Virus record (IMG/VR): IMGVR_UViG_3300043449_002292
Location: 64,001 to 128,000 of that record
DNA length: 64,000 nucleotides
Strand: one strand, 5' to 3'
Source: a virus
The notes beneath the pieces are model-generated. The model was not told the DNA's origin and ran no database searches. It saw only the letters and a list, made by a program, of their open reading frames with translations. The position numbers were made by a program, and so were the translations under genes. This document shows, piece by piece, positions 4,155-46,809 of this stretch. The stretch's first letter is position 1, and every line of letters begins with the position of its first letter.

Positions 4155-4182
4155 AGGGCGGAGAGGTTTAACCCTTCCGCCC
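4146..4182 (-). terminator. Probable intrinsic terminator downstream of the SSB gene
   Basis: GGGCGGAAGGG-TTAAA-CCTCTCCGCCC hairpin (one mismatch, one G-U) followed by TTTGCACATT. Confidence 0.6.
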
Positions 4183-4207
4183 CCGCATCAATCACCGGAC
4201 CCTGGAA

Positions 4208-24070: not shown

Positions 24071-27000
24071 TTATACGAACTCAACACCCGCGGGGGTGAT
24101 GATAAAGTCGACAGCGATGAACTCAACCGCGCGGGTTGGGACCACGATAATCCTACCGTTGAGCCTGCTGGCCTCTACGTCAGCCTGGGTGTTGTTGGTA
24201 TCATCGCAGATGATCCTGAACTGCTCAACTCCCGCCTGTGCCTTCACAAGGGAAAGCAGCGGGGTCGCACGATCGACGAATGTCTTCCTTGTCGTTGCAT
24301 CGTTGGGCTCGAAGAGAAGACCACGCGCGACGCCGAGAATGATCCTCTTGAGCTCCAGGAAGAGACGACGGACATTGACGCGATCGAAAGCTGACTTCGA
24401 GAGCTGCAGGGTCTTCTGTCCGAAGATGACGAACCCGCTACCCGGGAAGGTTGCGATCGGGTTGATCGAATTCTCGTAGAGGTAATCACGATCAGCTGCC
24501 GAGAGTCGAACCTCAACGTTGCCTACGAAATCGAGAGCAGCGCGGTTGAAGCCTGCGGGAGCATACCACGGGTAGGAGACCCTGTCACCGTATCCGATCG
24601 CTCCGAGCGCCGCCACCGATGCGGGCACCTTGACCTTACGGTTCGTCGTCGTATCATTCACAAAGACGTCCGGGAAGTAAGTCGCGACGTAGTTGCTGTT
24701 GATCGCGCGGGCGGTGAGAGCATCCGTCGTCTTCGTCACATTGGGCTTCGTTCCTGAATCCTCAAAGATTCGAACGTTCGCATCAGTGTAGGACGGCATG
24801 TCGAGGACATACATTCCAAGAGCGTAGCTTGGAAGTCGACGGGTGATGTAATCGGTAATCAGCGGCTCCTTGATTCCCGGCGTAGCGATCACGTTGACGT
24901 TGACCGTCAGCTTGTCTGTCATGAGCTTCGAGGCGACACGATATGAATTGATCGCGTTGTTGCTGAGGTTGTCACCCGCAGGATCGTATCCCAGACCCGA
25001 TCGAGCAAGCGGTTCGGATCCACCGACAGCCAGACCGCCCGTATCCGTCGACGTTGCGCGATCACCGAGGCGAGCCGCTGCAGCGTCGAGGACGTTGAGA
25101 CCGTCGAATCCACCGTAGAAGATCGTGGAGAACTTCGCATACTCGGAGAATTTGTTGAATGTGTTGACGGAGCCCGACAGAAGCGAGGCGAAAGTAAGCC
25201 TGCTCAGGGAGCTGTCGGTGATCCTATAGTCCACAGCATCCGGAACCCCGTTACGTATGTAAGCAGCCTCCTTCATGTGGGCCTCGATGGTTCCCGTTAC
25301 ATCGGAGAGCGTCTGATTGGAAAGGGCGACACGTGCCAGCGTGAACTTGTTGGCGTTGAAAGCATCAGCATCCGAGCCGGTCAGCAGCGCGTCGAGCTTC
25401 TGAATCCCCTGGAACTTTGAGTAAGCGAGAACCAGAGGGTTGAAGGCGTAACCAGCGTTCGCGTCCATGACCGAGTTCTCAATTTTACCCGAGACGGTTC
25501 CGGACGGGACGAGCTTCTCAAACTTCACACCCCAGTGCAGGCGGGAGTCTGGGATCTCGAGGATTCCCGGCGACCCGATGTATGATGAGCCGTCAACAGT
25601 TCCCCTCGTTGCCTTGAAGCGGAACGGAAGCGGTGGGACAATAGAGCCGGTCAGGCCCGTTGCGATCGAGCTGCTGCAGGCGAGGCGTGGTAGCACCCCT
25701 CCGCCAGAGCCGTAGGTCCTCGTTCCGATGATGAGGGCGCTCTGCGTATCCGTAAGGGTCTGGGTCGTGCGAACGACAGGAACACCGCGGAAACCGAAGG
25801 GCAGGGCGTTCGTTGGAACCGCGCCGGAATCAAGCTGGCTGGAAATCCGCACTCGAATTCGACGGCTCGCGTTCGGGAACTTACCGCTGATCAGCAGCCT
25901 CTGCTCCGACTCATCCGCAGCATCGAAGTTGAAGGTTACCTTACGATCTCCGATCTTCTTGGCAACGTAGTTCGTGCTGTTCGGATTGAGATCGCAGCCA
26001 GTGAAGCTCTCGAGAACCTTCGTCGATGTGTCGGTGTCGAAGAGATCACGAACCAGGACGTCGAACGTTCCGTATGGGTTCTTCGGATCCGTGGAGGCCT
26101 TCATGTTGACGATCGAGATCTTGAAGAGATCGTTGCCTGAGGAACCATCCGTGAGGGTCTCGAAGTGGAAGAGGTCATACTCAAAACCACCATACGGCTG
26201 CGAGATGATCGCTGGGGTCCGCGGGGTCGTGTAGCGGGTATCGTAACGTCCGAACTTCTGCAGGAAGAGGTCGTTTGAGCCTGAGGCGATCGCGATGCAG
26301 CTGTCACCGGTCGTATCGATGGGAGCAAGCTCGTCCTCAACCGGAAAATCGACGTAGAGCAGGTGCTGCTCGTCCTGGAACTTGCGGGGGTCCGTGTTGA
26401 GAACCTTTCCGAAGTAGTCCGTAGCGTTGGGGTCGAAGGACGCGGTCAGTATCCTGACGCCAGAGACCGAATCGGTCGTTCCGAACGTGGCACCCTGTGA
26501 TGAGGAGATTACGAACTTGAACTTCTTGTATGTTGTGGAGTTTGAATCGAGATCCGTCGAGGCGATGTCATCGAAAGCTGCTCCCGTCCCGCTCCACTGC
26601 GATGCCGCCCCGGTCATGTCAAGGACCATACCGCGGGCGCCGGTTGGGAAGAACAGCATACCACGAACGACGTTTATCGTGTCGTTCGAGGTTGGGTTGA
26701 AGCTCGGGTTATCGCTGAAAACCGGGAATCCACGCCACTCGGAGGGAGTTGACGTATCGGATGGCAGCTTGTGACGAGCAACGAGGAACTGCACCGCGCC
26801 AGTCTTACGAAGGTCGGTTGGGGGCTGGGCGACTGTTGAGCCGAGGACCTTGAAACCAGCGTTACGAACGGTTCCCTGTCCAGCTGTCGTGGAGAAATCA
26901 GAGGTGGTGGCATTCGCACCCGCGCCGAGGACGCGGATGAATGTGAGGGCACCCTTGTTCTTCAGCCACTCGTTCGCGGCGTAAGAGGCTGGACGATCCG

Positions 27001-27184
27001 GGTCGAGGCCACCGAAGCGTGCCTCGAAGTCCGAGAACGACGCGACGATGGTGGGCACGAAGGCAGGACCGGATGCGGCTGCACCGATGAGACCGCCAGG
27101 AACCCCAGTGGGCTGGGCTCCGGGTGCGGTGAGCTCAATCTCCTGCTCGAAAAATCCAGGAGAGCGAAATACCTGTTCCGACAT
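24071..27184 (-). CDS. gp18: Tail sheath protein, copy 1 (gp18-like)
   Basis: SPGFFEQEIE, GPAFVP, PWYAPAGFNR, INPIATFPG, FGQKTL, SAFDRVNVRRL, FEPND, PTRAVEFIAVDF. Confidence 0.93.
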   Translation of the reverse strand: MSEQVFRSPGFFEQEIELTAPGAQPTGVPGGLIGAAASGPAFVPTIVASFSDFEARFGGLDPDRPASYAANEWLKNKGALTFIRVLGAGANATTSDFSTTAGQGTVRNAGFKVLGSTVAQPPTDLRKTGAVQFLVARHKLPSDTSTPSEWRGFPVFSDNPSFNPTSNDTINVVRGMLFFPTGARGMVLDMTGAASQWSGTGAAFDDIASTDLDSNSTTYKKFKFVISSSQGATFGTTDSVSGVRILTASFDPNATDYFGKVLNTDPRKFQDEQHLLYVDFPVEDELAPIDTTGDSCIAIASGSNDLFLQKFGRYDTRYTTPRTPAIISQPYGGFEYDLFHFETLTDGSSGNDLFKISIVNMKASTDPKNPYGTFDVLVRDLFDTDTSTKVLESFTGCDLNPNSTNYVAKKIGDRKVTFNFDAADESEQRLLISGKFPNASRRIRVRISSQLDSGAVPTNALPFGFRGVPVVRTTQTLTDTQSALIIGTRTYGSGGGVLPRLACSSSIATGLTGSIVPPLPFRFKATRGTVDGSSYIGSPGILEIPDSRLHWGVKFEKLVPSGTVSGKIENSVMDANAGYAFNPLVLAYSKFQGIQKLDALLTGSDADAFNANKFTLARVALSNQTLSDVTGTIEAHMKEAAYIRNGVPDAVDYRITDSSLSRLTFASLLSGSVNTFNKFSEYAKFSTIFYGGFDGLNVLDAAAARLGDRATSTDTGGLAVGGSEPLARSGLGYDPAGDNLSNNAINSYRVASKLMTDKLTVNVNVIATPGIKEPLITDYITRRLPSYALGMYVLDMPSYTDANVRIFEDSGTKPNVTKTTDALTARAINSNYVATYFPDVFVNDTTTNRKVKVPASVAALGAIGYGDRVSYPWYAPAGFNRAALDFVGNVEVRLSAADRDYLYENSINPIATFPGSGFVIFGQKTLQLSKSAFDRVNVRRLFLELKRIILGVARGLLFEPNDATTRKTFVDRATPLLSLVKAQAGVEQFRIICDDTNNTQADVEASRLNGRIIVVPTRAVEFIAVDFIITPAGVEFV

Positions 27185-27250: not shown

Positions 27251-28516
27251 TCATTTTAAGTCCTTGTCGGACTTTGCGATTCTCCTGACGGTCGTGAGAA
27301 CTTCCTCTCCGTGGGCCGCAGAAACCCTCCTGACCCTCACGGTCACGTCCATGGGTTTACCCGTTATGGGATCCTCGGTGAGTCTCCTGGTGGTGCTGCG
27401 GGTTCGCAGCGAGGTAGATTCCATGCCTCCCACAGCCGTCGTCGGATTCTCCCGAATCCCGCTTCCGACCCGCTGGTTTCCACCCGCTGCGCGCTCAGCC
27501 TGACGATCCGTGCTTGTGCCGATGGAACCTTGAATCTCCGGCCCGTCGACGGTCGCGATGGGATCGAGGATCCTAGAATCGATCCGCATGTCGGCGAAGT
27601 TGCCCGGGGGCTCCGGATCGACCATGCCGTTGATTATTCCGAACGAGAACTGGGTCGCTGAGACTGTCCTCCTGATGCCGTTCGGAATTCCAGGTGATGA
27701 TGGCAGGACGATGAAGGCTGGGATGGAGGCCTTCAGGGTGTGCTTGATCGCGCGTTCATCATCGCTCATGTTGTCGAACGTGGTCTCGGACGAGACATCG
27801 GGGTCGAATGTGGCGTTGAACCAGTAACCCGAATCCGTCTCAAGGCGGTAAGATCTCGCGCGGACGTTGTGGTAACCGCTCAGTATCGTGGTCAGGATCT
27901 CGTTGCTATGCTGCATGAACTGCGTCCATAGGGTGATCTCGTAGCTTGCTGTGAAGAATTTCGGAACTGGGATGGAGATTGTCTCGTAAATTCCAGCACC
28001 GAGATTAGGCTCGAGAAGGCGACCACCTGCCATCCGCCCTGGTCGATCCAGACTGTCACGTCTGGAGCCGGTGGTTGGTGCTCCCACAGATTCCAGGCCG
28101 AGCGAGTTGATCACACGCTGGTAGATGGGATCGTCCTCGGACAGTCGACGCTTCACATCGATCGTGCCGATGTCACCCATCTCAATGATCTTCTGCGCTT
28201 CCTGCGCAACACCTGACCTCTGTATCGTGATCAGCGGAAGTATCAATGCGCCGTTCTTGTCCCGCAGCGGTTGCTTCCTGCGGGTGATCGCGAAACGCTC
28301 ACCTGTCGCGAAGATGATGGGAACCTTCTTCGTGGATCCATCCTTCTGCCTGTAGATGAGGGGCAGGTCCTTGTCGAAGAGGTTGAAGAGCGCGCGGTCG
28401 ACGTCCTCCAACCCGACGCTCGGGATGACCAGATCCTCGGGAACTGCCGAACCCTCGTAACCAAGATCGATCTTGTCGCGTCCGTAGCGCTTCCCAACAG
28501 CATACCTTGTGCTCAT
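27251..28516 (-). CDS. Tail terminator / sheath stabiliser (T4 gp15-like), putative
   Basis: VPIIFATGERF, ILPLITIQR, PVP....SYEITLWTQFMQHSNEILTTI; between neck and sheath genes. Confidence 0.65.
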   Translation of the reverse strand: MSTRYAVGKRYGRDKIDLGYEGSAVPEDLVIPSVGLEDVDRALFNLFDKDLPLIYRQKDGSTKKVPIIFATGERFAITRRKQPLRDKNGALILPLITIQRSGVAQEAQKIIEMGDIGTIDVKRRLSEDDPIYQRVINSLGLESVGAPTTGSRRDSLDRPGRMAGGRLLEPNLGAGIYETISIPVPKFFTASYEITLWTQFMQHSNEILTTILSGYHNVRARSYRLETDSGYWFNATFDPDVSSETTFDNMSDDERAIKHTLKASIPAFIVLPSSPGIPNGIRRTVSATQFSFGIINGMVDPEPPGNFADMRIDSRILDPIATVDGPEIQGSIGTSTDRQAERAAGGNQRVGSGIRENPTTAVGGMESTSLRTRSTTRRLTEDPITGKPMDVTVRVRRVSAAHGEEVLTTVRRIAKSDKDLK

Positions 28517-29166
28517 TCGTCACCGTAGAATGATGAGTTGATCCCATCAGGAGAGACCTTCTTGGGTCCGGTGATGGGAGCATCGAGCTTACCGTCCGCC
28601 TGCAACTCGCGCCGGTCCGCCGTTGTGCCGAGCTCGTTCGTAGCCGCCCCTCGTTGCTGGACGAAGGTGTCCTGGGAAACCCGCTCCGTCTCGTATGTTG
28701 CCGCGGCGGGGCCCTGGAACGCCTTGTCGATGAGACCCTCGCGAGCCTGCTTACCCATCAACTTGTAACCCGTCACGTGCTCCACCTGCCCGAAGATCTT
28801 GCTGATCGTGATGACCTGGGTAATCTCGAAGAAAACTGCACCGTATGAGAAGAAATCTCCCATTTTTAAGCGAAGCCCCTTATCGACGAGGTCCTGAGAG
28901 TGTATCCTCACCTCAATCGCGTGGAACTTCTCACTGCCGAACTTGTTCGTCTTTACCTCGCCCGCCGACCACTCAACGAGAGCATCGATCTCGAGCGGCG
29001 CATCGAACACCTTCTCGGTCGACTCCTCGTAAACATCGTGAACCTGCGTGACATCGACACGGATCGGATAATAGAAGATCTTCTGGCCGATAACGTCCTT
29101 GATGATCTCCTTTGTGAGGTCGCTGATTAGATCAAGCTCACGGGGTGTGATGAAGAGCCGCGCCAT
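28513..29166 (-). CDS. Neck / head-closure protein (T4 gp14-like), putative
   Basis: IGQKIFYYPI...VYEE...KFG...GDFF..G..FFEI; follows the gp13-like gene. Confidence 0.65.
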   Translation of the reverse strand: MARLFITPRELDLISDLTKEIIKDVIGQKIFYYPIRVDVTQVHDVYEESTEKVFDAPLEIDALVEWSAGEVKTNKFGSEKFHAIEVRIHSQDLVDKGLRLKMGDFFSYGAVFFEITQVITISKIFGQVEHVTGYKLMGKQAREGLIDKAFQGPAAATYETERVSQDTFVQQRGAATNELGTTADRRELQADGKLDAPITGPKKVSPDGINSSFYGDE

Positions 29167-29169
29167 GCA

Positions 29170-30342
29170 TCACCCGATGGTGATCACGCGGCCCATAGGA
29201 ACCGGGATCGCCTTGAGTATCTTCTGTTGATTATCAATCTCGGAAGCTTTCGTCTCGATGAGCTTGTTGTATGTCATCGAGTCGAGCATCTCCTTCAGGT
29301 CCGTCCTCAGCTTTTCCTTCTCCTCCTTCCCGGCTGATTTCAGGTCGCCTCCATCAAGCTGGAGCTCGCCGCCCGGGATCGGAACCGATCCAAATTTTGA
29401 CCTGATCATACCGAGCAGCTCCTTGCAGAGCGCGAGGGTGTACTGCCTCACCCACTGACGTGCCATGGAGTTGACCCGTGAATACTGGAAATTACCGTAG
29501 GGAACGTTGGAGAGGTTCGAGACGCCGTTGATGGAGTTGTCGGTAAAAGCTGGTGTCAATGGGTTGGACTCAAAGCCCACGCGAACCCAAAGCTTCAACG
29601 GGTTCTCGGCGGTGGGGGTCGGAAAGATCCTAATCTTCGTGCCTGTCACCCTGTAGCTGTAGTTTGAGCGACGGACGCGGTTGGAGATGTTCATCTGCCC
29701 GCCGCGGAGGATATCCTCGAAGACTGGTAGGACGTAGAAGACGGTCTCCGGTGTGAACGACTCGAACGAGAACTCGTTGTTGAGGTAGTTGATCGCCGAA
29801 GTGGTATCGAAGAACCTGTATGCAGCCGAGGGATTGAAGTGCATGATCTCGAAGACACGCATCTTCCGATGCTCAGGGTTGAGGGATGAGCTGACGATAG
29901 GGGTGTTCGTTGCTGGATCCACGAGATCGGTGTAGAGATCGTAGTCCTGGACATTCTGGCGGAGCTGTATCGACCCAGAGACCGAGTTGTACGTTCCTCC
30001 GAGGCCTGCCTCCACAGCGTAGGGCTCCGCGAGACGTATGATGTAGTTCAGCGTGTCGCGTGGAAACTTCTGGGTCGCGCTATCGAGGCTGCTCGTCTGC
30101 ATTCCAAGCAGCGAGAGCAGCTGGCTCTTCGCCTGGTACTGGTTGACGATCGAGCCGTACTCAAGGAATGCCTCCTCGAAGCAAGCCCAGATCTGCTTCC
30201 TGGTGAGCTCGACCGAGAGTATATCATCCCCGAGCCGTCGCTTCACGAAGGTGATCATCGCGTCCGCCTCGGTCTGAAAGTTCGAGTCGGAATCGAAGAA
30301 GCCGAATGGTGTCGGACTTAGTGTGCTGGTAAACGATGACAT
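29170..30342 (-). CDS. Neck protein (T4 gp13-like adaptor)
   Basis: VKRRLG..ILSVELT..QI..C.EEA; WVRQYTLALCKELLGMIRSKFGSVPIPGGELQLDG. Confidence 0.85.
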   Translation of the reverse strand: MSSFTSTLSPTPFGFFDSDSNFQTEADAMITFVKRRLGDDILSVELTRKQIWACFEEAFLEYGSIVNQYQAKSQLLSLLGMQTSSLDSATQKFPRDTLNYIIRLAEPYAVEAGLGGTYNSVSGSIQLRQNVQDYDLYTDLVDPATNTPIVSSSLNPEHRKMRVFEIMHFNPSAAYRFFDTTSAINYLNNEFSFESFTPETVFYVLPVFEDILRGGQMNISNRVRRSNYSYRVTGTKIRIFPTPTAENPLKLWVRVGFESNPLTPAFTDNSINGVSNLSNVPYGNFQYSRVNSMARQWVRQYTLALCKELLGMIRSKFGSVPIPGGELQLDGGDLKSAGKEEKEKLRTDLKEMLDSMTYNKLIETKASEIDNQQKILKAIPVPMGRVITIG

Positions 30343-30414: not shown

Positions 30415-31623
30415 TCAGACGAAGGAGGAAATCAGCATCCGACGACCACCACGATTCATACTGTCCATCAGGTGATGGGCTGCCGAGAACTGATACATCT
30501 CAACGGCGAGCTTACGCATCTCGCTCTCATACAGGGCGGCCCTTCGAGCACGTATCCTGGACTCCGACATCGTCTTCGCACCTGCTGGCGCAGCAGGACG
30601 AATCGCAGCTGCCGCCCCAGCGGTCGCTGCCGACGCTTTAGCAAGGCCACGGGAGGCTGCGTCCAGGGCGTTCGCGATCATGGTGCGAACAGCATTAGCG
30701 GCTTTACCTGCAAGACCGATAAGAAAATCTATGAAGGATATGAAAGCCATTCCCGTCATGATAGCGCCCACACCGACCGCAGTCAAGAGAGTTTCCACTG
30801 CAGCCACAGCACTTTTGAGCGTGTTCTTTATGAAGTTTAGAACCTCCTGAAGACCTGCTTTCATGGCACTTTGAACGTTGGTTACAAAGTTTGCCCATGC
30901 CGTGCCCATGGCGTCCTTAAAAATTTTCAGGTTGCAGTCTGTCGCAAACTTCTGTTTCGCCCGAAGCTGATCATTTATCAATGTGCTAAGAGCAGAGAAC
31001 GTTCCTGCGAGGGCCTCAATCGCTCCCTCGGACAATCCTGCGGTGAACGCGGCGCCCGCCATGCGAGCGGCAGTCTGGAGAGCGCCCGTGAGTCCACCCT
31101 GTCCGCCAGCCGTGCGTAAACTGCTCGCCATCTTGGAGAAGGTGCTGGCAGTCGCTTCCTGTATTCTCTCGGTTGCGATCAGCTCTGCTGTCACAGCTCC
31201 CACCCTTCCTGCCAGTCCGACCGCGGCGAGGGCGTCGGGTAGACTCTTCACAAAAACTTCGATTCTACAGGCGTCGTCCACACCTGGACGGCCCGGGACG
31301 TCAGGGCTCGGAGGGGCACCGCCACCGCCAGCCGCAGCGGGCTTATTCTTCAGCTGGGCAGCGACAGCCATGATGGCCGTGGCAGCCTTCGATCCGGCGG
31401 CAACGGGCTTCAGCGGCTGACCTAGCTTCGCTGTCTGAACCGCGTTGGTGCTGATATCGGCGCTGTAGCTGTAGGTGGCATCCTGCCACGTGACCACGTT
31501 ACCGGCGACCTTCACATTCTTTGCCTCCGCAGCTTGAGCAGCAGTGGAAGCCTGCTCCATGAGGTATGATCTCCTCATCTCCTGGTTGACGATGGCACGA
31601 AGCTGTGACTCAGTTATCCTCAT
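30415..31623 (-). CDS. Ala-rich protein with hydrophobic helix; putative internal head/ejection protein
   Basis: N-terminal MRITESQLRAIVNQEM, SD AGGAG, hydrophobic LLTAVGVGAIMTGMAFISFIDFLIGLAG. Confidence 0.65.
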   Translation of the reverse strand: MRITESQLRAIVNQEMRRSYLMEQASTAAQAAEAKNVKVAGNVVTWQDATYSYSADISTNAVQTAKLGQPLKPVAAGSKAATAIMAVAAQLKNKPAAAGGGGAPPSPDVPGRPGVDDACRIEVFVKSLPDALAAVGLAGRVGAVTAELIATERIQEATASTFSKMASSLRTAGGQGGLTGALQTAARMAGAAFTAGLSEGAIEALAGTFSALSTLINDQLRAKQKFATDCNLKIFKDAMGTAWANFVTNVQSAMKAGLQEVLNFIKNTLKSAVAAVETLLTAVGVGAIMTGMAFISFIDFLIGLAGKAANAVRTMIANALDAASRGLAKASAATAGAAAAIRPAAPAGAKTMSESRIRARRAALYESEMRKLAVEMYQFSAAHHLMDSMNRGGRRMLISSFV

Positions 31624-31639
31624 TTTATCTCCTAAAATC

Positions 31640-33412
31640 TTATCTATCTACGAGAATATGCTCAAGCAGCGATTTTAGCAGGATTCTCCTGCCATCTTGG
31701 ATATCACCGCGTTCCCCTTTAACTATTCCCCAGTACATGTTTTTCATCTCCTGGTTCAGGTTTTTTGGAACGTAGCTATCGAATGATGACTTATCACCAG
31801 CCGCGATGAATCCACGCATCATGGTTCCTGAGATCTGCGTGGTTTCCGACCTTGGAACTGCGACCTGCTGGAACTTCTCCAGCACGGCAGGATCTTTGAT
31901 CGTGCTCCTCATCTTGGCAGGGGAGTACTTGACTTTCGCATCCTCAACATCGGAGTAGAAGATGAAGCGACTGACGATGCCCTTCAGGTCTCGCATCTTG
32001 TTCACCGCAATATCGAGCGGTGACTCCTGGCTGATGATGAGCGTCGCGTTTGGAAAGTCCTTGTGAAACTGTGGCTCCAGCACCGACTTCCAGGCATCGA
32101 TCATGACACCGGCTGGCAGCTCATCCCTTCCTGCGATCGATGTGATGATGAGAGCCTCGTCGCACTCACTCGCGACCCGACCGATCATCTTCCAGTGACC
32201 GTCATGAACCGGTTTACCCGCGAGGACGAAGATACCGACAGTGATCCCATTCCTGTCACCGATCTCGACTCGCTTCATGATCCTCGTCTTCGTTGTCAGG
32301 AACAGGTCCTCCTGCCGCTGTATCAGCTCCTTCTTCCGGTGGAAGAGACGACCCAGCCTGTTCGAGATCGCCGCATCGAAGTAGCACTCGTTATGGATCC
32401 GCTCCAGCAAATCGTTCATCTCGGACTCCTTGATGTTACGATTCTGGGCTGGAGCAAACTCAGCGACAATCTCATCCGCGATGGTGATGATCGAACTCCA
32501 GTAGGCCTGCTCGATCGGAGGCGTTTCCCGGAACTTATCTTTCACAGCTCCGCGGGTGGTCTCATCATGTTGGTCGGGGTTTAGGGCCTTGTAAAGAGCC
32601 CTCGTGGTCGATGTCCTCATCACGACGCCCTCGGCTGGGGACAGATCCGTCTCCGTCGAGAGAGAGGTCTTGAACTCCGAGAACACCTTGTAGATCACAT
32701 CGATGATACGAAGGGGACGATCCGGTGAGCGATCGTTGTATGCATCGTTGAGTGAGCTGAACACTTCATTGAAACGACGCTCGATCGCCTTGTTCCTGAT
32801 GCCCGCCCTGAAATCATTGATGCTGGAGAGCTTCCCGTCGAACATCACTGGATACGTTTTCACCCCTAGCAGCCGAGCGTATCGCTCCAGCATGTCATCA
32901 TCATCGACAGGTGTCATGTTGCTGACGAGATGGGTTCCAGTGAGCTTGTAGTGGCATGGTCCGAAGAGCGTCAGGAAGATCCCATGCTTCTGGGGGTAAT
33001 CACGGGTGATTGTCGCCTTGCGTTGCACGAACTCGAGGAAGAACTCGGTTCCCTGTGGAATCTCCGCGGTCTGATGATGCATCCGCTCAAGCAGGGAATG
33101 AACGAGAGCATACTGCGCCGTTCCCGCCGAGTGCGCTCGGATCTCCTCCTCACGCTTTCCGAGTCCACGAATCTCACTTGGAAAGATCAGGTTACCCCTG
33201 TAGGCAACGTGCCAGTTCTTCGCGTAATCGTTCGGATCGAACTCGTTGTTGCGACGGATGAGGGTAAGCTTCGTTCCGTCGATCTTCTCAACTATCCTGA
33301 CGTTATCATCGAGAAACTGCCTTGCCTTGCGACGATCATTCTCACGCTCGCGTGGGGTAGCATCATCGCGGATCATGACCTTCCTAAGGTCCTTGATGGA
33401 GATGTCGGCCAT
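31640..33412 (-). CDS. Fusion: ATP-dependent ligase-type nucleotidyltransferase (RNA ligase-like) plus HIGH-family cytidylyl/adenylyltransferase
   Basis: Ligase motifs I EKIDGT, III EFFLEFV, IV AEGVVMR, V LYKA; C-terminal GIFVLAGKPVHDGHWKMI (HxGH) and QISGTMMR...FDSYVP. Confidence 0.8.
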   Translation of the reverse strand: MADISIKDLRKVMIRDDATPRERENDRRKARQFLDDNVRIVEKIDGTKLTLIRRNNEFDPNDYAKNWHVAYRGNLIFPSEIRGLGKREEEIRAHSAGTAQYALVHSLLERMHHQTAEIPQGTEFFLEFVQRKATITRDYPQKHGIFLTLFGPCHYKLTGTHLVSNMTPVDDDDMLERYARLLGVKTYPVMFDGKLSSINDFRAGIRNKAIERRFNEVFSSLNDAYNDRSPDRPLRIIDVIYKVFSEFKTSLSTETDLSPAEGVVMRTSTTRALYKALNPDQHDETTRGAVKDKFRETPPIEQAYWSSIITIADEIVAEFAPAQNRNIKESEMNDLLERIHNECYFDAAISNRLGRLFHRKKELIQRQEDLFLTTKTRIMKRVEIGDRNGITVGIFVLAGKPVHDGHWKMIGRVASECDEALIITSIAGRDELPAGVMIDAWKSVLEPQFHKDFPNATLIISQESPLDIAVNKMRDLKGIVSRFIFYSDVEDAKVKYSPAKMRSTIKDPAVLEKFQQVAVPRSETTQISGTMMRGFIAAGDKSSFDSYVPKNLNQEMKNMYWGIVKGERGDIQDGRRILLKSLLEHILVDR

Positions 33413-33416
33413 CAGA

Positions 33417-34946
33417 TCACCCCAGCATCATGTTAACAAGACGATTGATCCGACGGCGAGTCGACTCATCGACCCCAACGTCTTCTGTGTCCTCGATGAA
33501 CCCCTTCTGTCCGCGCACCGTGTACTTATCATAGAACTCTTTCTTCATCGCCTCCACATCCATCGTTGATGCATCAGCGTCAGGCAGGGCATTCTTGAAA
33601 GTTTCGATGATAGCTTCCTTCACACTCTTATCCTCTTGTGGGTCGGTGGCTGATATCTTCTGGGCACGGCGTCCGTAGAGCCTGATCACCAGCTCCTCGT
33701 ATACTTTGACGATCTCAGGAGGTGAGAACCTCTCCTTCATCAGGTCAAGAATACCAACGAAGGACTGGAAGTCCTCCAATTCCCTCTCTGTGGGCTCCGA
33801 CTCGCTCCCGAACAGTGACTTAAAGATCTGCTTGACGATCCGAATCGCACCAGAGCGCTCGGATCGTTTGAGGTACTTGTACACCTCATCACCATTATAA
33901 GTCCAGTCAAGCTTTTTGTATCGTTCCCCTAGTCCAGTTACAAGATCCACTGACAGCAGGGAACGTAAGCGGACAGGTCTCATTGAAGCGGCCTTGATCT
34001 CACGCTTCACCTGCGTGAGAGCCTGTGCGTATGCAGACTCAGGTTTCTTCTTGGGGAAGTCCCTGAGGATCTTTTTCATCTCCTCCTGCGCGCGGGCCTC
34101 GATCTCCTCATCGGTCGGGGACACAAAATCAGGATCCTTCGTCATGCTGATCCCAGGATCCTCAGCGGTCGCTGACGGTGTCGCAAGACGCGCGTTGATC
34201 GGCATGGGCGACCTGATGGTGGCGATCGACATCAGGATCATCTTGTGGGCGAGTCCCTTGACGCCAGCCTCGATATCACGCCATGATGATGAGTGCGAGA
34301 ATCGTGCCCACTCGGAGGGCTTCCCACCTTCATACTCCGATGATTCGAAATCGATCTGGAAGAAGGTATCACCCTCACCCGGAGAAGCCGCAGGATCCCA
34401 GGTGTAGGCGAAGAGAGCATTCATCTGATCCGTGCCGGGAGAGTGCTTATTATGCCCGATGTACGCGATGCGATCCGTGAGCGACTGATCCTCAAGGCGT
34501 GTGAGGGTTGCGAAGAGCTCCTCCGCCCTCTCCTCCGGGATCGTGAGGTCGATATCGCCCACCGTGGGCTTGAACTTGATGAACCTCTCATCGGGCATCT
34601 TCTCGCGTGGAGCGAAGAGGTGGGCGGAGGAGCCGTTGAACGCGAAGCCCGTCCCGAGGATCTCATCGCGGGTTTCAGGATCCCAGAGCGGATGACCATG
34701 ATCACGTTTGAAACGATCGTCGAGCGCCACGAGCGCCTTGATCACCTCACGTCGGAAGTCCTCCCTCGTGATGCGACCGCCCTTCAGATCGATCTTCTCG
34801 GCATAAGCTTCCTTACCACGAAAGGTCTTCACCCGCTCTGGGCTGATGACTCGACCTGTCTCCGGATCACGAACGAGAGCTCGGGTGTTGCCACCCTCGA
34901 CAAGCCCATCATACGATCCAAAGATAAAATTGGCGATGCTGAACAT
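33417..34946 (-). CDS. DNA polymerase beta-superfamily nucleotidyltransferase, putative
   Basis: FNGSS...VGDIDLTI (GS plus DxD) and third acidic strand FFQIDF; downstream GVKGLAHK helix. Confidence 0.7.
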   Translation of the reverse strand: MFSIANFIFGSYDGLVEGGNTRALVRDPETGRVISPERVKTFRGKEAYAEKIDLKGGRITREDFRREVIKALVALDDRFKRDHGHPLWDPETRDEILGTGFAFNGSSAHLFAPREKMPDERFIKFKPTVGDIDLTIPEERAEELFATLTRLEDQSLTDRIAYIGHNKHSPGTDQMNALFAYTWDPAASPGEGDTFFQIDFESSEYEGGKPSEWARFSHSSSWRDIEAGVKGLAHKMILMSIATIRSPMPINARLATPSATAEDPGISMTKDPDFVSPTDEEIEARAQEEMKKILRDFPKKKPESAYAQALTQVKREIKAASMRPVRLRSLLSVDLVTGLGERYKKLDWTYNGDEVYKYLKRSERSGAIRIVKQIFKSLFGSESEPTERELEDFQSFVGILDLMKERFSPPEIVKVYEELVIRLYGRRAQKISATDPQEDKSVKEAIIETFKNALPDADASTMDVEAMKKEFYDKYTVRGQKGFIEDTEDVGVDESTRRRINRLVNMMLG

Positions 34947-35647: not shown

Positions 35648-37567
35648 TCAGATGATGTTCATGTCGAGGCAGGTGACCGTTCCGTAGAAGTCGGAGCGGA
35701 CCATCTTCTTGCCGTAGCGGGTCATGACACCCTTACGCGGCGTGAAGTCCTCGGGAGCGAAGATCGTCGGGGTGACGATGAGCGGGACGTAAGGAGCGTA
35801 GACGTAGCCAGTCTCCAGGTAGCTGCCGCCCTTGAAGCCGACGAGAATCTTGTTCCTGGGGAAGTAAGGATCCTTGTAGACCGTGAAGCGGTTGCTGAGG
35901 GTGCCGACCTTCTCCGCGCCGATCGAGAACGGGGCGCCGACCTGACCGGAACCGTCGATGCTGTAGCTCGGGCGGTAGTAGGTCGAGGCCTCGAGGATCG
36001 TCGCGACGTCCGGGCCGACAACGATGAAGTTGGCGGAGCCGCGGAGGGTCTTGCGGTGGATCTCGTTACCGACGTCGATGATCGTCTCGGTGAGGGTCTC
36101 ATACCACTCACGGACCGTGCCGGTGAAGTTCGGGCCCGGAGCGGTGGTGGAGGCGCGGCTGATCTCAGCGCCGGTGGTCTTGTTGACGAACCTGCCCGGG
36201 GCGCGTGACCAGAAGTAGTTCGCACCCGACGCCTGCGTGAGCAGGTCGTTCAGGATCTCACGATCGAGCTCGAGGGCGATCTGCTCGGAGAGGATCTGGG
36301 TGAGCTCAACCTCAGCGTCGATGCTGTGGTAAGCGTTCAGGTCCTGCGCGAGCTCCGGAGACCAGCGAGCGCGGAGCTTGCGGGTCGTCGCGGTGACGGC
36401 GATGGACTCGATCTTGATGTCGATCTCGGGGATGACCGGGGAGGGGGTCGTGCCGAAGTTCGACTCGAAGACCGGGATGGTCACGGTGGAGCCAGTGGTG
36501 CTCTCAACGTCGAGCGCCGAGTTCAGCGGGTAGCTGATCTTGAGCGAGCTCGCGTAGCCACCATCGGTGTCGAGCTTCGGAAGAAGGTTCGAGGCCGAGA
36601 TGACGCAGAGCATGTGGGTTCCGGACAGCGGGGTCGCGGTGAACACCTTCGAGCTGTTGTTCCAAGTTCCAACCTGGTTGAGACGACGGATGTTGAGGAC
36701 GCTGTTACCACCCTGGAAGGTCTCGCCCGGGATCAGGAGACCCGGGACGGTGCCAGTCGTGAAGATCGCGAAGTCCTTAACGAGCGACTGGTCGGAACCA
36801 GTGAGCTGTCCGAGATCGACAACGAGGAACTTGAAGAAGGCATCGCCGTCGGCAAGACCAGCGGGCTTCGGTGAGCTCTCGATGAGGCTGGTGACCTGCG
36901 GATCGAATCCGAGGAGGCGACCATCGGTTCCTGTGGCGTGGAGGTTCGCACGGGCCGTGAAGGCACCGGCGCCGCTGTAACCACCGGAGGCAACGATCTG
37001 AGCGGCGTTCAGCACGAAGTCGGCGTGAACGCGGCTGTAACCGGCGCCGGCGAGATCATACATACCACCGGTCGCAAGAGAGCCGCTCTGGACGCCCTTA
37101 CCAACAGGGTTGTTGTAGATCGACTGACCGACGGTGTAGGTCGACTTGGTGGAAGCCGTTCCAGCTCCGTCAACGCCAGCATCACCACCGCGGTTGGTGC
37201 CGTAGGTGTAATCCAGGTAGAAGAGGAGACCGGAGGGGAGGCTCATCGGCTGGATCGAGACGAGCTCGTTCGCCACGAGGCCGCCGAAGACGCGGCGGAC
37301 GATGGGGAACGCGATGTTCGAGAAGCCGCGGATGTCGCTGCCGCCTGAGGAGAGAGAGCCACCGCCGCTGGAGAGAGCGTTGCTCTCGCGGAGGAGGTTG
37401 GCGGTCTGGTTCTCGAGGAGGCGAGCCATGTTCTCGCGATTGACTCCATCGAGGCCACGAAGCAGGCCGGTGCGGCCCCACTTCTCGACGAGGCGGCTGT
37501 TCTCCGCCCCGACGTCACGCCCGCGGATGCCTTCCGAGAGCTGCTCTAGTGTAAAAGACTTAGACAT
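35648..37567 (-). CDS. gp23: Major capsid protein (T4 gp23-like)
   Basis: MARLLENQ, PIVRRVF..LVANELVSIQPMSLPSGLLF, TRKLRARWSPELAQDLNAYH.IDAE.EL, YAPYVPL, FTPRKGVMTRYG. Confidence 0.97.
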   Translation of the reverse strand: MSKSFTLEQLSEGIRGRDVGAENSRLVEKWGRTGLLRGLDGVNRENMARLLENQTANLLRESNALSSGGGSLSSGGSDIRGFSNIAFPIVRRVFGGLVANELVSIQPMSLPSGLLFYLDYTYGTNRGGDAGVDGAGTASTKSTYTVGQSIYNNPVGKGVQSGSLATGGMYDLAGAGYSRVHADFVLNAAQIVASGGYSGAGAFTARANLHATGTDGRLLGFDPQVTSLIESSPKPAGLADGDAFFKFLVVDLGQLTGSDQSLVKDFAIFTTGTVPGLLIPGETFQGGNSVLNIRRLNQVGTWNNSSKVFTATPLSGTHMLCVISASNLLPKLDTDGGYASSLKISYPLNSALDVESTTGSTVTIPVFESNFGTTPSPVIPEIDIKIESIAVTATTRKLRARWSPELAQDLNAYHSIDAEVELTQILSEQIALELDREILNDLLTQASGANYFWSRAPGRFVNKTTGAEISRASTTAPGPNFTGTVREWYETLTETIIDVGNEIHRKTLRGSANFIVVGPDVATILEASTYYRPSYSIDGSGQVGAPFSIGAEKVGTLSNRFTVYKDPYFPRNKILVGFKGGSYLETGYVYAPYVPLIVTPTIFAPEDFTPRKGVMTRYGKKMVRSDFYGTVTCLDMNII

Positions 37568-41452: not shown

Positions 41453-42067
41453 TTACTTCTTCCATGTTAGAATATCGTTGAATATTCTATCGATCCGATC
41501 GCTTCGATTAAATGTTCTTGAGAGTTCGTTCTGCTTTACCTGACGACCTTCACGCATCATGAAAGCGCCGGGGGTTGAAGGTTCGGACACGAAATCCCAG
41601 CAGATGAGCTGAAAGTCGTCCTGAACGATCTGATGCTCGCCTGACTTCCGGGTTGAACCGACGCCTCGTGAGGAGATACCGAGCGTGACCCCAGCCTCGA
41701 CGAGGCTCTGAAGTATCTTGCCGCAGGGGGTGTCGAGTATCTCGACGGTCCCGTAGCAGACGTTGCCCTCCATGTAGGCTTCACGGACGATGTGGCTCAC
41801 CTTCTTCAGCTCAACGACAGAGGAGTCCGGATGATCACATTCACCCAACGCGCGACTCTCACGAATGAACTTCTGGTAGTTGCGAACCTCTCGCTCCAGG
41901 ATATCCTTTGGATAAACGCGACCGTTCTGGTTCAGGGTCTCCGCCTTCTGGAGGATACCTTTCATGATGAGTTTACCACCGTTCTGATCGCGGCTCTCCT
42001 TGACCATCTTGGAATCATAGGAGAACGGAGCCCACTCGGTGAGCAGCATTAGGGATCTATCACTCAT
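41453..42067 (-). CDS. gp21: Prohead core protease (T4 gp21-like)
   Basis: NQNGRVYP, GECDHP, VSH, TPCG.IL, GISSRGVGS, DFVSEPSTPGA. Confidence 0.95.
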   Translation of the reverse strand: MSDRSLMLLTEWAPFSYDSKMVKESRDQNGGKLIMKGILQKAETLNQNGRVYPKDILEREVRNYQKFIRESRALGECDHPDSSVVELKKVSHIVREAYMEGNVCYGTVEILDTPCGKILQSLVEAGVTLGISSRGVGSTRKSGEHQIVQDDFQLICWDFVSEPSTPGAFMMREGRQVKQNELSRTFNRSDRIDRIFNDILTWKK

Positions 42068-42896
42068 CTTTAGTCTCCATCTCCTGATACAGTTGCGTCA
42101 GCTGCATGAACTTAACAATCCCGGCGTCGTCCAGTGAACGTGGGTCGGCGGATTCGACCATCGTTTTTACCCCGTCGAGCTTCTCCAGCAGAACTCCGTT
42201 GTCGGTGGATTCCTTTAACCTGCTCAGGCCACGCAGTGCCCGCCTCTTGATGCTCTCGAGCATATTCTCATCGACTCTACCGTGAACGTAATCACGTATC
42301 AGGGCTTTCTGAGTTTCATTCAGCTTGTCACCCCACTTCTTCTCGAACTTCTCGTTCATGACCCTCACGGTGAGAGAATTTACGTCCTTCGTGGTGAGGT
42401 CATCAATAACAACTGGTTCGGACTTCTCACGTCGCATCCACTCGAGAAGCTTGCCCTCATATTCAACGACTCGAGTGAGGTCAGATTCATCCTCACGACG
42501 CCAGTCGTTTAAAAGGGTCTGTAGGGTCGCGTATAGACGATACTCTCTCACCGGTTGATTGAAGAAGCTATCATCGTTTAGCGTCTTATTAATTTCTCGA
42601 ATCAGAGCCGACTTTTCAACCTCAAGCTGCCTTGGAGAGAATATATGAACTCCACGACGAGCCTCCTGTATCAACCGAAGTCCAAGGCTTTCAGACCTCA
42701 CTGTCGTGTTGAGGAGAGCTTGAAAGAGACGAAATTCCTTAAAAATTTCAGTCCCAGGCTTGAAGTGCTTCTTGATTATTGAGGTGCACTTATTAGCAGT
42801 GGCAAGATCATTGTCAATCAACGCAGCAGAAGCCCTAAGGAGCAGCTGCTCGTAAATGATTCCTACGTTTCTTTTCTTGTTATGCTGGTTACTCAT
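42060..42896 (-). CDS. Hypothetical head assembly protein between portal and protease
   Basis: 278 aa helical protein, HNKKRNVGIIYEQL N-terminus, overlaps both neighbours. Confidence 0.75.
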   Translation of the reverse strand: MSNQHNKKRNVGIIYEQLLLRASAALIDNDLATANKCTSIIKKHFKPGTEIFKEFRLFQALLNTTVRSESLGLRLIQEARRGVHIFSPRQLEVEKSALIREINKTLNDDSFFNQPVREYRLYATLQTLLNDWRREDESDLTRVVEYEGKLLEWMRREKSEPVVIDDLTTKDVNSLTVRVMNEKFEKKWGDKLNETQKALIRDYVHGRVDENMLESIKRRALRGLSRLKESTDNGVLLEKLDGVKTMVESADPRSLDDAGIVKFMQLTQLYQEMETKDE

Positions 42897-44802
42897 CTGC
42901 GCTTCCCGAATTATTTGAAATGTCGGTCTTCTCAGCGATGATCTCGCTATTCCCTATACCTATCTTCGTCCGCATGTCTTTCAACGATAATCCGAGCTGC
43001 GGCGTCATCTTCGGTCTTGGAAAAGCTGGTTCATCGTAGAGCTCCTGCATCAAGCTCATCTGCTTACGAGATTCGACAGCCACTGAGTAAAGCTCGTCCT
43101 CATCAAAGACTCGATTGCTGGTGTCCTGATCGCGCGCCCAGCTTCCAACGCCCGCCATCTTGAACATGTCAGGCATATCGACCGACGCAGCGGTGCTGCG
43201 ATCTCGGGTGGTCTCTACGTCCTTACCGAAGACATTTCGTATCTTCTTCTCAGCCTTGAGAGGAAGATCCTCATTCTCGATCGATAGTATCGCCGGACGC
43301 TCAACGCCGGAAGAGACGATCTCGCCCTCTCTCTCATAACCAGCTGTCAGCGCGCCGCCGCCGGCTGCAGCGCCACCACCGCCAACTCCACCAGCGCCCT
43401 CAGGTCCAGGAACCGCCTCAAGATCAGCGTCCTCGGTCTTATCAGCCTTCCTACCCTCTTTGATATTCTCGATGTCCTCATCGGAGAGACCCATGATATT
43501 CTTGCGAACCCAACGACGATCAACGATACCCTCAGGAGCCTTTCCGGCGATGTCGAAACGTGAGGAGATGAGCTCAAGTTTCTGCTGCTGGGCGATCGTG
43601 GAAGGATTGGAAAGCTTAAGCGTAAAGTCAAGCAGATCCTCTCCTGTGTAGCCGTGGGAGTAGAGATGAATCATCGCCATCTTGTTGAGTTCTGATATCA
43701 CAACCTTCTGGATCCTTGAGATAGTTCTGGAGAACCTGATGTCCTCCTGCGCTAGGGTAGCCTTCGCACCGATTTCCTCGTCGTAACCGAGGTAAGCTTT
43801 CGGAATCTTCAAGGCAGCGAAGAGCTTCTTCTGGATGTATTGCACGTCCTCTATCGCCGCGGCGTTAGATCCACCCGCCAGTGAATCGATCTTGGTTCCC
43901 GTCTCACCGCCGCGAACTGGAATGAAGTAGTCCTCATCAACTGCGAGAGGATTGTAACGAAGGTCCATCTTTCCGTTTGCTTTATCAGCGACCTTGTTCC
44001 TCTTCAGGCTCGTCTGCGCCTGCTCCATGAAGTTTGCAATCTCCTCGGGTGGGATGTTGCCGACATCAATGTAAAACACACGACGCTCAGGAGCACGAAC
44101 GATGCGATAGACGAGCATCGCATCCTCCATGAGAATCAGCTGGCGCCAGATACGCCGAGCAGACTCTAGAACTGACGATCCGTATGGAAGGAAAGCGTCA
44201 TTACCGAGGAGTCTGAAGTGTGAAATCTGCCAATTCTCAAGGACCTGATTCCCGCGGGTGATCCAACGGAAGCGAACCGCCATGGGATCCTTCGGATCGT
44301 AACCTTCCTCACGCTCCATCTCGGAGATTGGAATCGGGTAGGCATTGATGATTCCGTAGTTCGGGTGCACGTCGTTGAAGAGGAAGAAGTCGCCATACTT
44401 GCAGAGATTCCTCGTCCACATCGGTAAGTTGAACTCGATGTTCAGCGTATCAGTGAAAAGTGTCTCGAGCAGCTCCCTGATCCTTCGATTCTCGGAGTGA
44501 ATGTGAAGGACCTGACCCTTCTCATCCTGTGAAACGGTCTCCTCCGCATAAATGTCAAGAGCGGAGGCAATCTCTGGTGTTGCTTCCATCTCAGAGAAGT
44601 CTGAGTATCTTGACATGCGATCAAAAGCACCGTAAGCAGACACGGTGCTTGAGTAGATGTCGGACTGATTCCTTCTAAACATCTCATAGGCTGAGGATGC
44701 AGTAGGTTCAGAGAAATTTTTCACCTTTCGACGGATAACTGGCCCGGACCTAAAGAGCTGGGTCAGCCGCTGAAAAAGATTCTTGTTTGTTTTTTCTGCC
44801 AT
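42889..44802 (-). CDS. gp20: Portal protein (T4 gp20-like)
   Basis: PEIASALD, QLILMEDAMLVYRIVRAPERRVFYIDVGN, EDYFIPVRGG, IEDVQYIQKKLFAALKIP. Confidence 0.96.
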   Translation of the reverse strand: MAEKTNKNLFQRLTQLFRSGPVIRRKVKNFSEPTASSAYEMFRRNQSDIYSSTVSAYGAFDRMSRYSDFSEMEATPEIASALDIYAEETVSQDEKGQVLHIHSENRRIRELLETLFTDTLNIEFNLPMWTRNLCKYGDFFLFNDVHPNYGIINAYPIPISEMEREEGYDPKDPMAVRFRWITRGNQVLENWQISHFRLLGNDAFLPYGSSVLESARRIWRQLILMEDAMLVYRIVRAPERRVFYIDVGNIPPEEIANFMEQAQTSLKRNKVADKANGKMDLRYNPLAVDEDYFIPVRGGETGTKIDSLAGGSNAAAIEDVQYIQKKLFAALKIPKAYLGYDEEIGAKATLAQEDIRFSRTISRIQKVVISELNKMAMIHLYSHGYTGEDLLDFTLKLSNPSTIAQQQKLELISSRFDIAGKAPEGIVDRRWVRKNIMGLSDEDIENIKEGRKADKTEDADLEAVPGPEGAGGVGGGGAAAGGGALTAGYEREGEIVSSGVERPAILSIENEDLPLKAEKKIRNVFGKDVETTRDRSTAASVDMPDMFKMAGVGSWARDQDTSNRVFDEDELYSVAVESRKQMSLMQELYDEPAFPRPKMTPQLGLSLKDMRTKIGIGNSEIIAEKTDISNNSGSADE

Positions 44803-46436: not shown

Positions 46437-46437
46437 T

Positions 46438-46809
46438 TCACACCACCTGCAGCGTGACCTGTCTCCTGTAGTACGCAACTCGACGAGCCGAGTTATTCGT
46501 GGCTACAATTACCTCCAGCGAGTCCTTATTTGAAACTTCCTTGAGTTTGATCGCGGAGCCTGTAGCTTCCTTGAACTTACTCTTAAGATCAGCGACGCAC
46601 TTTCCAAGAATTTCGATGGATTCATGAGACACCCGATCAGCCTGCGCACGAAGGGCGCTCTCGGCCGCGAAGTGAACCACTGTCATGTACTTGAGCGTTA
46701 ACGTGTCACCGTTTGTGGAGCATGTAACGGAATTCGGCATGGAAGATACGCCCCAACCCTTTTGCGTTATCTGTGCCAGGGTGTTGAGGTCTTTTGTTGA
46801 TAGATGCAT
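46438..46809 (-). CDS. Hypothetical protein co-transcribed with terminase
   Basis: 123 aa, SD GGGAG, ATATTTAG motif at 46836-46829. Confidence 0.75.
   Translation of the reverse strand: MHLSTKDLNTLAQITQKGWGVSSMPNSVTCSTNGDTLTLKYMTVVHFAAESALRAQADRVSHESIEILGKCVADLKSKFKEATGSAIKLKEVSNKDSLEVIVATNNSARRVAYYRRQVTLQVV

Follow-up and report, generated by a model that had tools for sequence, protein, structure and literature searches.

Several described systems join the ends of broken polynucleotides, and in some of them the sealing enzyme works beside others that clean or extend those ends. RNA ligases such as T4 Rnl2 (gp24.1, encoded by rnlB) and Rnl5 (the Naegleria enzyme NgrRnl) have an adenylyltransferase fold with motifs I, III, IV and V in that order, and they lack a C-terminal oligonucleotide-binding (OB) domain. 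RlaP proteins (PF10127) are nucleotidyltransferases of the Pol-beta superfamily encoded in RNA-ligase operons; they add one or two nucleoside monophosphates to damaged RNA 3′ ends and are needed to restore tRNAs shortened by ribotoxins such as RloC (PMC12776372). According to a survey of jumbo phages, RlaP in phages goes along with RNA ligases, and in some cases calcineurin-like phosphatases carry out 3′ healing (PMC7824862). Clostridium thermocellum Pnkp unites a kinase, a metallophosphoesterase and a ligase, T4 Pnkp and Rnl1 repair tRNA, and bacterial LigD, which has ligase, polymerase and 3′-phosphoesterase parts, as well as the African swine fever virus (ASFV) Pol X together with its ligase, follow a logic of end cleaning, nucleotide addition and sealing. 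Here we analyse a viral gene, P0001, located in positions 64,001 to 128,000 of the IMG/VR virus record IMGVR_UViG_3300043449_002292; this whole stretch of 64,000 nucleotides is the window, and coordinates refer to it unless another record is named. Judged by its motifs and its structural model, the product of P0001 is a true two-enzyme protein, in which a predicted RNA-ligase-type sealing domain is followed by a predicted PPAT/NMNAT-like transferase of the HIGH (HxGH) type, and its gene lies beside that of a predicted Pol-X-like nucleotidyltransferase, P0068.

P0001 comprises three parts (the ligase domain, a helical linker and the HIGH domain) and ends in a short C-terminal tail. The gene, its parts and the partner gene are placed as follows:

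31640-33412, minus strand: ligase-HIGH gene (P0001), 590 amino acids plus stop, the sole long open reading frame (ORF) there
32543-33412, minus strand: residues 1-290, predicted RNA-ligase-type covalent nucleotidyltransferase domain (from motifs, fold and conservation)
32249-32542, minus strand: residues 291-388, all-helical linker (from the secondary structure of the model)
31709-32248, minus strand: residues 389-568, predicted HIGH (HxGH) Rossmann-like nucleotidyltransferase domain (from motifs and fold)
31643-31708, minus strand: residues 569-590, C-terminal tail, RRILLKSLLEHILVDR (low confidence, amphipathic)
33417-34946, minus strand: partner gene (P0068), 509 amino acids, predicted Pol-X-like

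The AlphaFold2 model of P0001, obtained with 39 homologues, has a mean predicted local distance difference test score (pLDDT) of 89.3 and a predicted template modelling score of 0.85. Motif I of the ligase domain is EKIDGTK, with EKIDG at residues 42-46 and Lys43 encoded at nt 33284-33286; it is followed by the motif III region TEFFLEF (E123/E127), motif IV AEGVV (E261) and motif V LYKAL (K275), while R287 and K291 are invariant in the alignments. The Pfam RNA_ligase family PF09414 matches residues 38-275 over nearly the whole length of its model (E 2.2e-5, 25.1 bits, cut-off 27) and is matched by 8 of 39 family members at E<=0.1; PHROG 27149, of unknown function, matches P0001 with an E value of 2.7e-25, and a sequence search of the PDB gave chance matches only. 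In structural comparisons, RNA ligases superpose with their adenylyltransferase domains on residues 1-287, namely NgrRnl (5cot, Z 10.4), T4 Rnl2 (1s68, Z 10.3), TbREL1 (Z 9.5) and Trl1 (Z 8.3), whereas the DNA ligase 6rce scores lower (Z 7.5). The best Foldseek match of this domain is also T4 Rnl2 (E 1e-7). P0001 thus resembles Rnl2 and NgrRnl in the fold of this domain and in the order of its motifs, but the structural alignment to Rnl2 (2hvq) spans only Rnl2 residues 3-234, so that the C-terminal helical domain of Rnl2 remains unmatched. P0001 also differs from Rnl2 in having a single conserved Lys in motif V and an appended HIGH domain.

An earlier note on this DNA had proposed, from the letters alone, a fusion of a ligase with a HIGH domain, and the model confirms both folds around the motifs EKIDG (42-46), HDGH (403-406) and ISGTMMR (527-533). 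The same note held that a helical region leads from the ligase to the HxGH domain without an OB fold. This is what the model gives: residues 279-384 form helices only, and there is therefore no beta-barrel OB fold. The absence is real, but it is not the oddity it was taken for: RNA ligases usually lack a C-terminal OB fold, and T4 Rnl2 and TbREL1, among the best structural matches, have none either. The linker is reached only by the structural alignments of Trl1 and Rnl3 (Z about 8), and it contains two invariant residues, D369 and K375, in a helix that abuts the HIGH domain. The polypeptide also lacks a kinase or phosphatase healing domain, as had been claimed: there is no Walker A motif in P0001, in P0068 or in the product of the downstream gene P0069, and no kinase family of Pfam or NCBIfam is matched.

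The HIGH domain is a nucleotidylyltransferase of the HUP class (PF01467-like), predicted from its motifs and model to be catalytically intact. HDGH is encoded at nt 32195-32206. Structure prediction, which had been suggested as a check, places the domain among the PPAT and NMNAT folds (Z 11.7-13.0): residues 389-567 superpose on PPAT and NadD with Z scores of 12-13 (up to 13.0) and a root-mean-square deviation (rmsd) of 2.8-3.0 Å over about 154 residues, and on NMNAT/NaMNAT with Z scores of 10-11.8; the superpositions as a whole have an rmsd of about 2.8-3.3 Å over 150-160 residues. The domain is similar to PPAT (CoaD) and NMNAT/NaMNAT (NadD, NadM, NadR) in size, fold and the placement of (H/T)xGH and ISxTxxR, but it differs from them in a two-residue insertion before HxGH and in its position behind a ligase. 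In distant members of the family HDGH is replaced by TKAH or TKDGH, a PPAT-type variant of the motif. Sequence models are less specific. Cytidyltransferase PHROGs match residues 520-561; the NMNAT models of NCBIfam (TIGR01526, TIGR01527 and NF002243) reach 11.9-14.7 bits against cut-offs of 127-341, and over the HxGH stretch only; generic cytidylyl/adenylyltransferase models of NCBIfam match weakly around HxGH, far under their cut-offs; and the PPAT (CoaD) model is absent from the NCBIfam and Pfam results, the likeness to PPAT being one of fold alone. PPAT, NaMNAT and NMNAT fit the domain equally well, and no specific family model is reached. The domain is neutral to acidic (median pI 5.8), and domain charge did not discriminate between substrates.

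These comparisons bear on what the HIGH domain might do. It could be an ordinary enzyme of cofactor salvage, for instance an NMNAT directed against NAD-depleting defences, fused to an unrelated RNA ligase as a counter-defence multi-tool. The fold, which ties with NMNAT, NaMNAT and the adenylyltransferase domains of NadM/NadR, is compatible with such a role, and HIGH-type NMNATs joined to other domains are known from jumbo phages (PMC7824862). Nevertheless, none of five genomes with a family member contained a nicotinamide phosphoribosyltransferase (Nampt), a result that speaks against plain NAD salvage; the NMNAT models stay far below their cut-offs; and the fusion has been kept down to 25% identity together with the Pol-X-like partner, which would be unexpected of a casual fusion. 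We consider this explanation highly improbable.

The ligase-HIGH protein belongs to a large family. A word-index search returned 67 homologues, in a full-length tier with 57-75% identity and a second tier with 27-36%, and an exhaustive profile search of cluster representatives returned 1144 at E<=0.001, 537 at 1e-10 and 166 at 1e-30, most of which are about 480-620 amino acids long and cover both domains. P0001 is therefore a conserved gene and not a chance reading frame. Its Atlas neighbours are all viral. Conservation of single residues was counted over 129 family representatives, with the following result:

Lys43: kept in 124 of 129, the remainder being gaps save one Gly
Glu127: kept in 129 of 129
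Lys132: kept in 129 of 129
Glu261: kept in 128 of 129
Lys275: kept in 127 of 129
His406: kept in 126 of 129
Ser528: kept in 95 of the 97 aligned

On these counts neither domain looks degenerate. In culture, the family is known from Campylobacter phages of the CP220 group (gp026) and from the Vibrio phages pv27, phiKT1024 and Va1, of about 191 kb, with proteins at 25% identity; all these proteins are annotated as hypothetical, and the record of CP220 gp026 adds 'note the nucleotidylyl transferase domain'. In Campylobacter phage vB_CcoM-IBB_35 (L074, HM246721.1 23855-25289) the member is annotated as two ORFs of 339 and 97 amino acids, and the gene is therefore broken or mis-sequenced in that record. 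A truly split form occurs in locus L078, where a ligase-only protein of 356 amino acids (28-1098) and a HIGH protein of 190 amino acids (4155-4727) are encoded 3 kb apart on one strand; the fusion is thus not obligatory, although the association is kept. A more distant case is p142 of Synechococcus phage S-PM2 (L077:6633-7805, 'cytidyltransferase', T4-GC 190), in which the HIGH domain aligns weakly, including the tail motif after ISxT, and in which the segment before it, PEGFVAIVDGKAVKIVDRLEF, resembles ligase motifs IV-V, with no KxDG. The viral fold library suggested this protein as a member, but it is missed by the sequence profiles A2 and A3 and was not accepted as such; from its sequence, p142 may represent a reduced relative, widespread among cyanophages.

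The long-standing linkage of the two domains raises another possibility for the HIGH domain, which is that it adenylylates a phosphate at a polynucleotide end (5′-PO4 to AppN, or 3′-PO4 to N(3′)pp(5′)A) and passes the activated end to the ligase. Formation of AppN from a 5′-phosphate is the same chemistry as the formation of NAD from nicotinamide mononucleotide and ATP. An activation of RNA ends by the HIGH domain, as a new chemistry of end healing or capping, had been put forward in the earlier note as one of two options, the other being that the domain supplies the ligase with an activated nucleotide; both may hold. In favour of end activation, the linkage is ancient and persists in more than 100 clusters whose two active sites are intact, the split form retains its two genes close to each other, no family model for a small-molecule enzyme fits the HIGH domain, Nampt is lacking in the five genomes, and the invariant D369 and K375 lie in the helix against the HIGH domain. 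On the other side, the Lys of motif I and motifs IV and V are invariant, and the ligase presumably adenylylates ends itself; the HIGH domain is neutral to acidic; and we know of no HIGH-family enzyme that uses a polynucleotide end as acceptor. Such a role is in our judgement improbable.

The second protein of the locus, P0068, is encoded by a translationally coupled gene immediately upstream, its stop codon lying 4 nt before the start codon of the ligase-HIGH gene. It has no Pfam match. In an alignment of 32 sequences, G105-S106, GDxD at 130-133 (G130-D131-I-D133 in P0068) and D199 (in Q197-I-D199, QIDFE) are invariant, and this set of GS, GDxD and a third Asp constitutes the signature of the Pol-beta nucleotidyltransferases, with a spacing from GS to DxD of 24 residues that is longer than the usual 9-13. 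The model of P0068 has a pLDDT of 86.5. Foldseek gave weak matches only, with TdT, Pol beta/lambda/mu, MenT and RelP as the common theme, while in a search independent of Foldseek (VIA) the nine best chains were all family-X polymerases (Z 6.2-7.0), among them Pol beta, mu and lambda, TdT, Thermus PolX and ASFV Pol X. To the minimal ASFV Pol X it aligns with a Z score of 6.7 over 164 of 176 residues (rmsd 3.6 Å). Folds of the cGAS-like, OAS and TUTase type lie within about 1 Z unit of these matches, and no 8-kDa deoxyribose phosphate (dRP) lyase or fingers domain is matched in P0068. In an Atlas cluster related to P0068, 33% of the members carry PF01909. P0068 is thus assigned, from its motifs and its model, to the Pol-beta superfamily as a Pol-X-like protein and is at most a putative polymerase.

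The association of the two proteins was examined in 72 loci, of which 63 come from IMG/VR and the others from metagenomes and GenBank. In 70 of them a P0068-like domain is found immediately upstream of the ligase-HIGH gene, nearby, or within the same ORF; only a 3-kb contig and CP220 depart from this, and in CP220 the partner is elsewhere in the genome. CP220 gp027, a 'virion structural protein', was considered as the partner and rejected, as it has no similarity to P0068; the real partner is encoded at a distance of 65 kb. Both enzymes occur in each of the five whole or large genomes tested. In some members the two are fused, with the P0068 domain at the N-terminus (P0249, P0270 and P0199) or at the C-terminus (P0165, P0065 with 986 amino acids, P0141 and P0142), and the existence of both domain orders indicates independent fusion events. 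A further lineage of single proteins of about 1310 amino acids (L037-L071, for example L038:9971-13897; P0141) contains the ligase, the HIGH domain, a divergent Pol-beta-like domain (GS...GDVDMQ...QVDL) and a P0068-like domain, that is, four nucleotidyltransferase domains per chain. In several clades a small metallophosphoesterase (about 186 amino acids, Metallophos/Metallophos_2) overlaps, directly follows or lies near the ligase-HIGH gene; it is a plausible 3′-end healing enzyme and is found in these loci:

L003-L008, L030-L036, L060, L064, L065, L072 and L079

Therefore, the lack of a healing domain, which holds for the polypeptide, does not make P0001 a lone ligase: the Pol-X-like partner accompanies it in nearly every locus and the metallophosphoesterase adjoins it in several clades. 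The carriers also have a separate DNA ligase (gp033 in CP220, and one in L003), so that the ligase-HIGH protein is not the replicative ligase. RNA-related genes occur in the neighbourhood in several cases, such as a cREC phosphoesterase and a SpoU methylase in L003, SmpB in L007 and a CCA-adding enzyme in pv27.

Taking fold, linkage and neighbours together, we propose, at about even chances, that the ligase-HIGH protein is the sealing subunit of a conserved phage module which repairs polynucleotide ends, with RNA as the most likely substrate. RNA is favoured because the carriers have a separate DNA ligase and because the fold is that of an RNA ligase. In the clades that possess one, the metallophosphoesterase would first strip a 3′-phosphate or a 2′,3′-cyclic phosphate from the damaged end; the Pol-X-like enzyme would then add back one or a few nucleotides to the 3′-OH end; and the N-terminal domain of P0001 would seal the break through Lys43-AMP, an AppN-end and finally the phosphodiester. 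By analogy with repair by RlaP plus RNA ligase, the substrate would likely be an RNA such as a tRNA that has been cut and trimmed by host anticodon nucleases. To this pathway the HIGH domain would contribute an ATP-dependent transfer of an adenylyl (nucleotidyl) group. Folds, conserved catalytic motifs, linkage and fusions are shown, whereas the substrate, the sequence of the steps, the part of the HIGH domain and the packaging considered below are inferred.

The module shares features with each of the known systems and coincides with none of them. As in RlaP systems, a nucleotidyltransferase of the Pol-beta superfamily is genetically tied to an RNA ligase, but P0068 is larger, has a Pol-X-like fold and is often fused to the ligase, and the RlaP systems have no HIGH domain. 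Compared with C. thermocellum Pnkp and the T4 Pnkp/Rnl1 pair, relatives of this locus likewise join a ligase with a phosphoesterase for 3′ healing, whereas the P-loop kinase is lacking, the phosphoesterase is a separate small gene, and a polymerase-like nucleotidyltransferase and a HIGH domain stand in place of the kinase. The logic of LigD and of ASFV Pol X with its ligase is the same as that of the module, while in comparison with LigD all the folds differ: the ligase is of the RNA-ligase type without OB domain, the nucleotide-adding enzyme belongs to the Pol beta class rather than to the primase-polymerases, and the phosphoesterase is another one. Both domains of P0001 are thus new members of known superfamilies; their combination with the partner, for which the papers searched give no description, varies the known theme of healing, extending and sealing and does not amount to a new kind of system.

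Several observations weigh against the repair of RNA ends by this module. At the level of sequence, hhalign gave no significant match between the ligase of P0001 and T4 Rnl2, and the PF09414 score is just below its cut-off. No polynucleotide kinase was found in the module, and therefore the 5′-OH ends left by metal-independent ribotoxins could not be sealed without another enzyme. The record containing the window is a viral contig of 142,859 bp, judged to be about 43% complete, and genome-wide negatives are limited to that fragment; no metallophosphoesterase or tRNA gene was seen in it, nor a DNA ligase or DUF6267 gene. P0068 was also considered as an RlaP and rejected, since neither P0068 nor any of the 32 family members matches PF10127 at E<=1, and the genome contains no match either. 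Among solved structures, the folds nearest to P0068 are family X DNA polymerases, which point towards DNA, and in L003 and L005 the module is found amid genes for DNA ligase, Pol III alpha, endonuclease I and dCMP deaminase. Finally, the repair model gives the HIGH domain no explained function.

The last of these findings on partner and neighbourhood lead to the main rival, according to which the module is a kit that mends breaks or gaps in DNA, as a viral counterpart of LigD or base-excision repair. Short gaps would be filled by the Pol-X-like enzyme, perhaps with ribonucleotides, the metallophosphoesterase would clean 3′-phosphates and the Rnl2/Rnl5-like domain would seal nicks with a 3′-ribonucleotide; the target would be the DNA of the phage itself, such as nicks or ends present at injection. 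Apart from the family-X matches of the partner and the DNA-metabolism genes around the L003 and L005 modules, it is consistent with this scheme that gaps with 3′-P/5′-P require no kinase, that ligases of the Rnl2/Rnl5 type seal duplex nicks with a 3′-OH ribonucleotide (PMC3884662), and that the leader of the partner described below, which resembles a capsid-targeting signal, would put the enzymes beside the genome. However, the matches to Pol X reach modest Z scores (6.2-7.0), barely separated from those of the cGAS-like, OAS and TUTase folds, the dRP-lyase and fingers domains are not matched, and the fold of the ligase domain is closest to RNA ligases, with the DNA ligase 6rce lower. We regard the DNA repair kit as unlikely, although it deserves serious attention.

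Returning to the proposed RNA-end repair module, the position of the pair in this phage raises the question of where its enzymes would act. The window belongs to a large T4-like phage and all its genes are on the minus strand. The genes around the pair are the following:

47110-50238, minus strand: single ORF of 1042 amino acids, SbcD-like and SbcC-like
44841-46478, minus strand: large terminase
42889-44802, minus strand: portal
41453-42067, minus strand: prohead protease, gp21-type
35648-37567, minus strand: Gp23-type major capsid protein
30415-31623, minus strand: Ala/Gly-rich gene (P0069), 402 amino acids, downstream of ligase-HIGH
29170-30342, minus strand: head-tail adaptor
24071-27184, minus strand: tail sheath

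In the clade of the window, represented by 20 sister contigs, the pair is always located between the capsid and adaptor genes. This neighbourhood was discarded as proof of packaging, since T4 rnlB likewise lies beside the capsid genes 23 and 24. A more direct indication comes from the N-terminus of P0068, which has a leader of 17 amino acids, MFSIANFIFGSYDGLVE (34896-34946, minus strand), before an invariant GGN. In the partner family 49 of 59 members have a leader of 9-45 amino acids that ends in Glu right before GGN, and the other 10 start with M-GGN; the leader is present in the window clade, with its head-neck context, and absent in the L003/L005 clade, with its DNA-metabolism context. In T4, the leader of IPII and IPIII targets these proteins to the prohead, where the gp21 protease cuts after Glu. 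Some of the partner leaders (MKKFRQFIVE, MKIRDIILE) resemble this T4 leader, MKTYQEFIAE, which was confirmed at the starts of ipII and ipIII, while the leader in the window is longer and less similar and the ligase-HIGH protein has none. The pair, lying in a late head-neck operon with a partner leader of the T4 type, may enter the head and travel with the DNA. We take seriously, but lean against, the possibility that this phage carries the pair inside its head and delivers it together with its DNA; the virion proteome of Campylobacter phage IBB_35 provided no usable mention.

A bolder version joins this possibility to the activation of ends by the HIGH domain. The three nucleotidyltransferase folds would then work as a single machine, with the HIGH domain adenylylating ends for a kinase- or lysine-independent sealing or capping. 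The machine would be loaded into the head through the partner leader and injected, and repair or protection of ends would begin before phage gene expression. We find this very doubtful.

The tails of the two proteins are a separate matter. P0001 (RRILLKSLLEHILVDR) and P0068 (RRRINRLVNMMLG, 33420-33480, minus strand) end in similar basic amphipathic tails; that of P0001 has a pLDDT of 57-63 and a helix predicted at 577-589. In the L003/L005 clade the paired tails are NENVLRSCVQLIMRS and TREMVESMIRQYVKEFL, and the homologues of L008, pv27 and CP220 have no such tails. The paired tails may serve as a common helix for docking or as a targeting signal.

Of the remaining genes, P0069 has a weak tape-measure PHROG match. 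It is missing between the ligase-HIGH and adaptor genes in many sister contigs (for example L010, L017, L021-L024 and L026-L029), and in P0022 and L016 it is fused in frame to ligase-HIGH (986-987 amino acids). P0069 is therefore a variable neighbour outside the conserved module. Across the sister contigs L010-L029 the flanking structural proteins (27251-30342) are 77-92% identical and the two enzymes (31640-34946) 55-75%, so that the repair pair evolves faster than its neighbours. The ORF at 47110-50238 matches an SbcD-like nuclease PHROG over residues 1-339 and an SbcC-like ATPase PHROG over residues 365-1032, and by these matches it is a fused recombination nuclease of the gp47-gp46 type; fusions of the same SbcD-SbcC type (1046-1051 amino acids) are present in two related contigs too. 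A scan for promoters and terminators gave no signal above background.

The module of RNA-ligase-type, HIGH and Pol-X-like enzymes with an optional metallophosphoesterase has no description in the literature searched, a search whose scope left the RNA-repair survey of Burroughs and Aravind (2016) outside. Searches on ligase-cytidylyltransferase fusions, tRNA-repair modules, anti-defence and the cyanophage 'cytitidyltransferase' returned nothing relevant beyond the work on RlaP and the jumbo-phage review. The repair of RNA and DNA ends is a known battleground between phages and their hosts, in which anticodon nucleases and 'smart' ribotoxins that remove nucleotides take part. The ligase-HIGH proteins bring to it a large and uncharacterised family, solely viral in the data at hand, in which a ligase is joined, by a near-obligate linkage, to two other kinds of nucleotidyl transfer enzymes. 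From a practical point of view, the ligase and the Pol-X-like enzyme could serve as reagents. Knowledge of what the HIGH domain does might bring to light a new means by which polynucleotide ends are prepared or marked and, if it is true that the enzymes are packed in the capsid, this phage would offer a rare case of repair enzymes delivered together with the genome.

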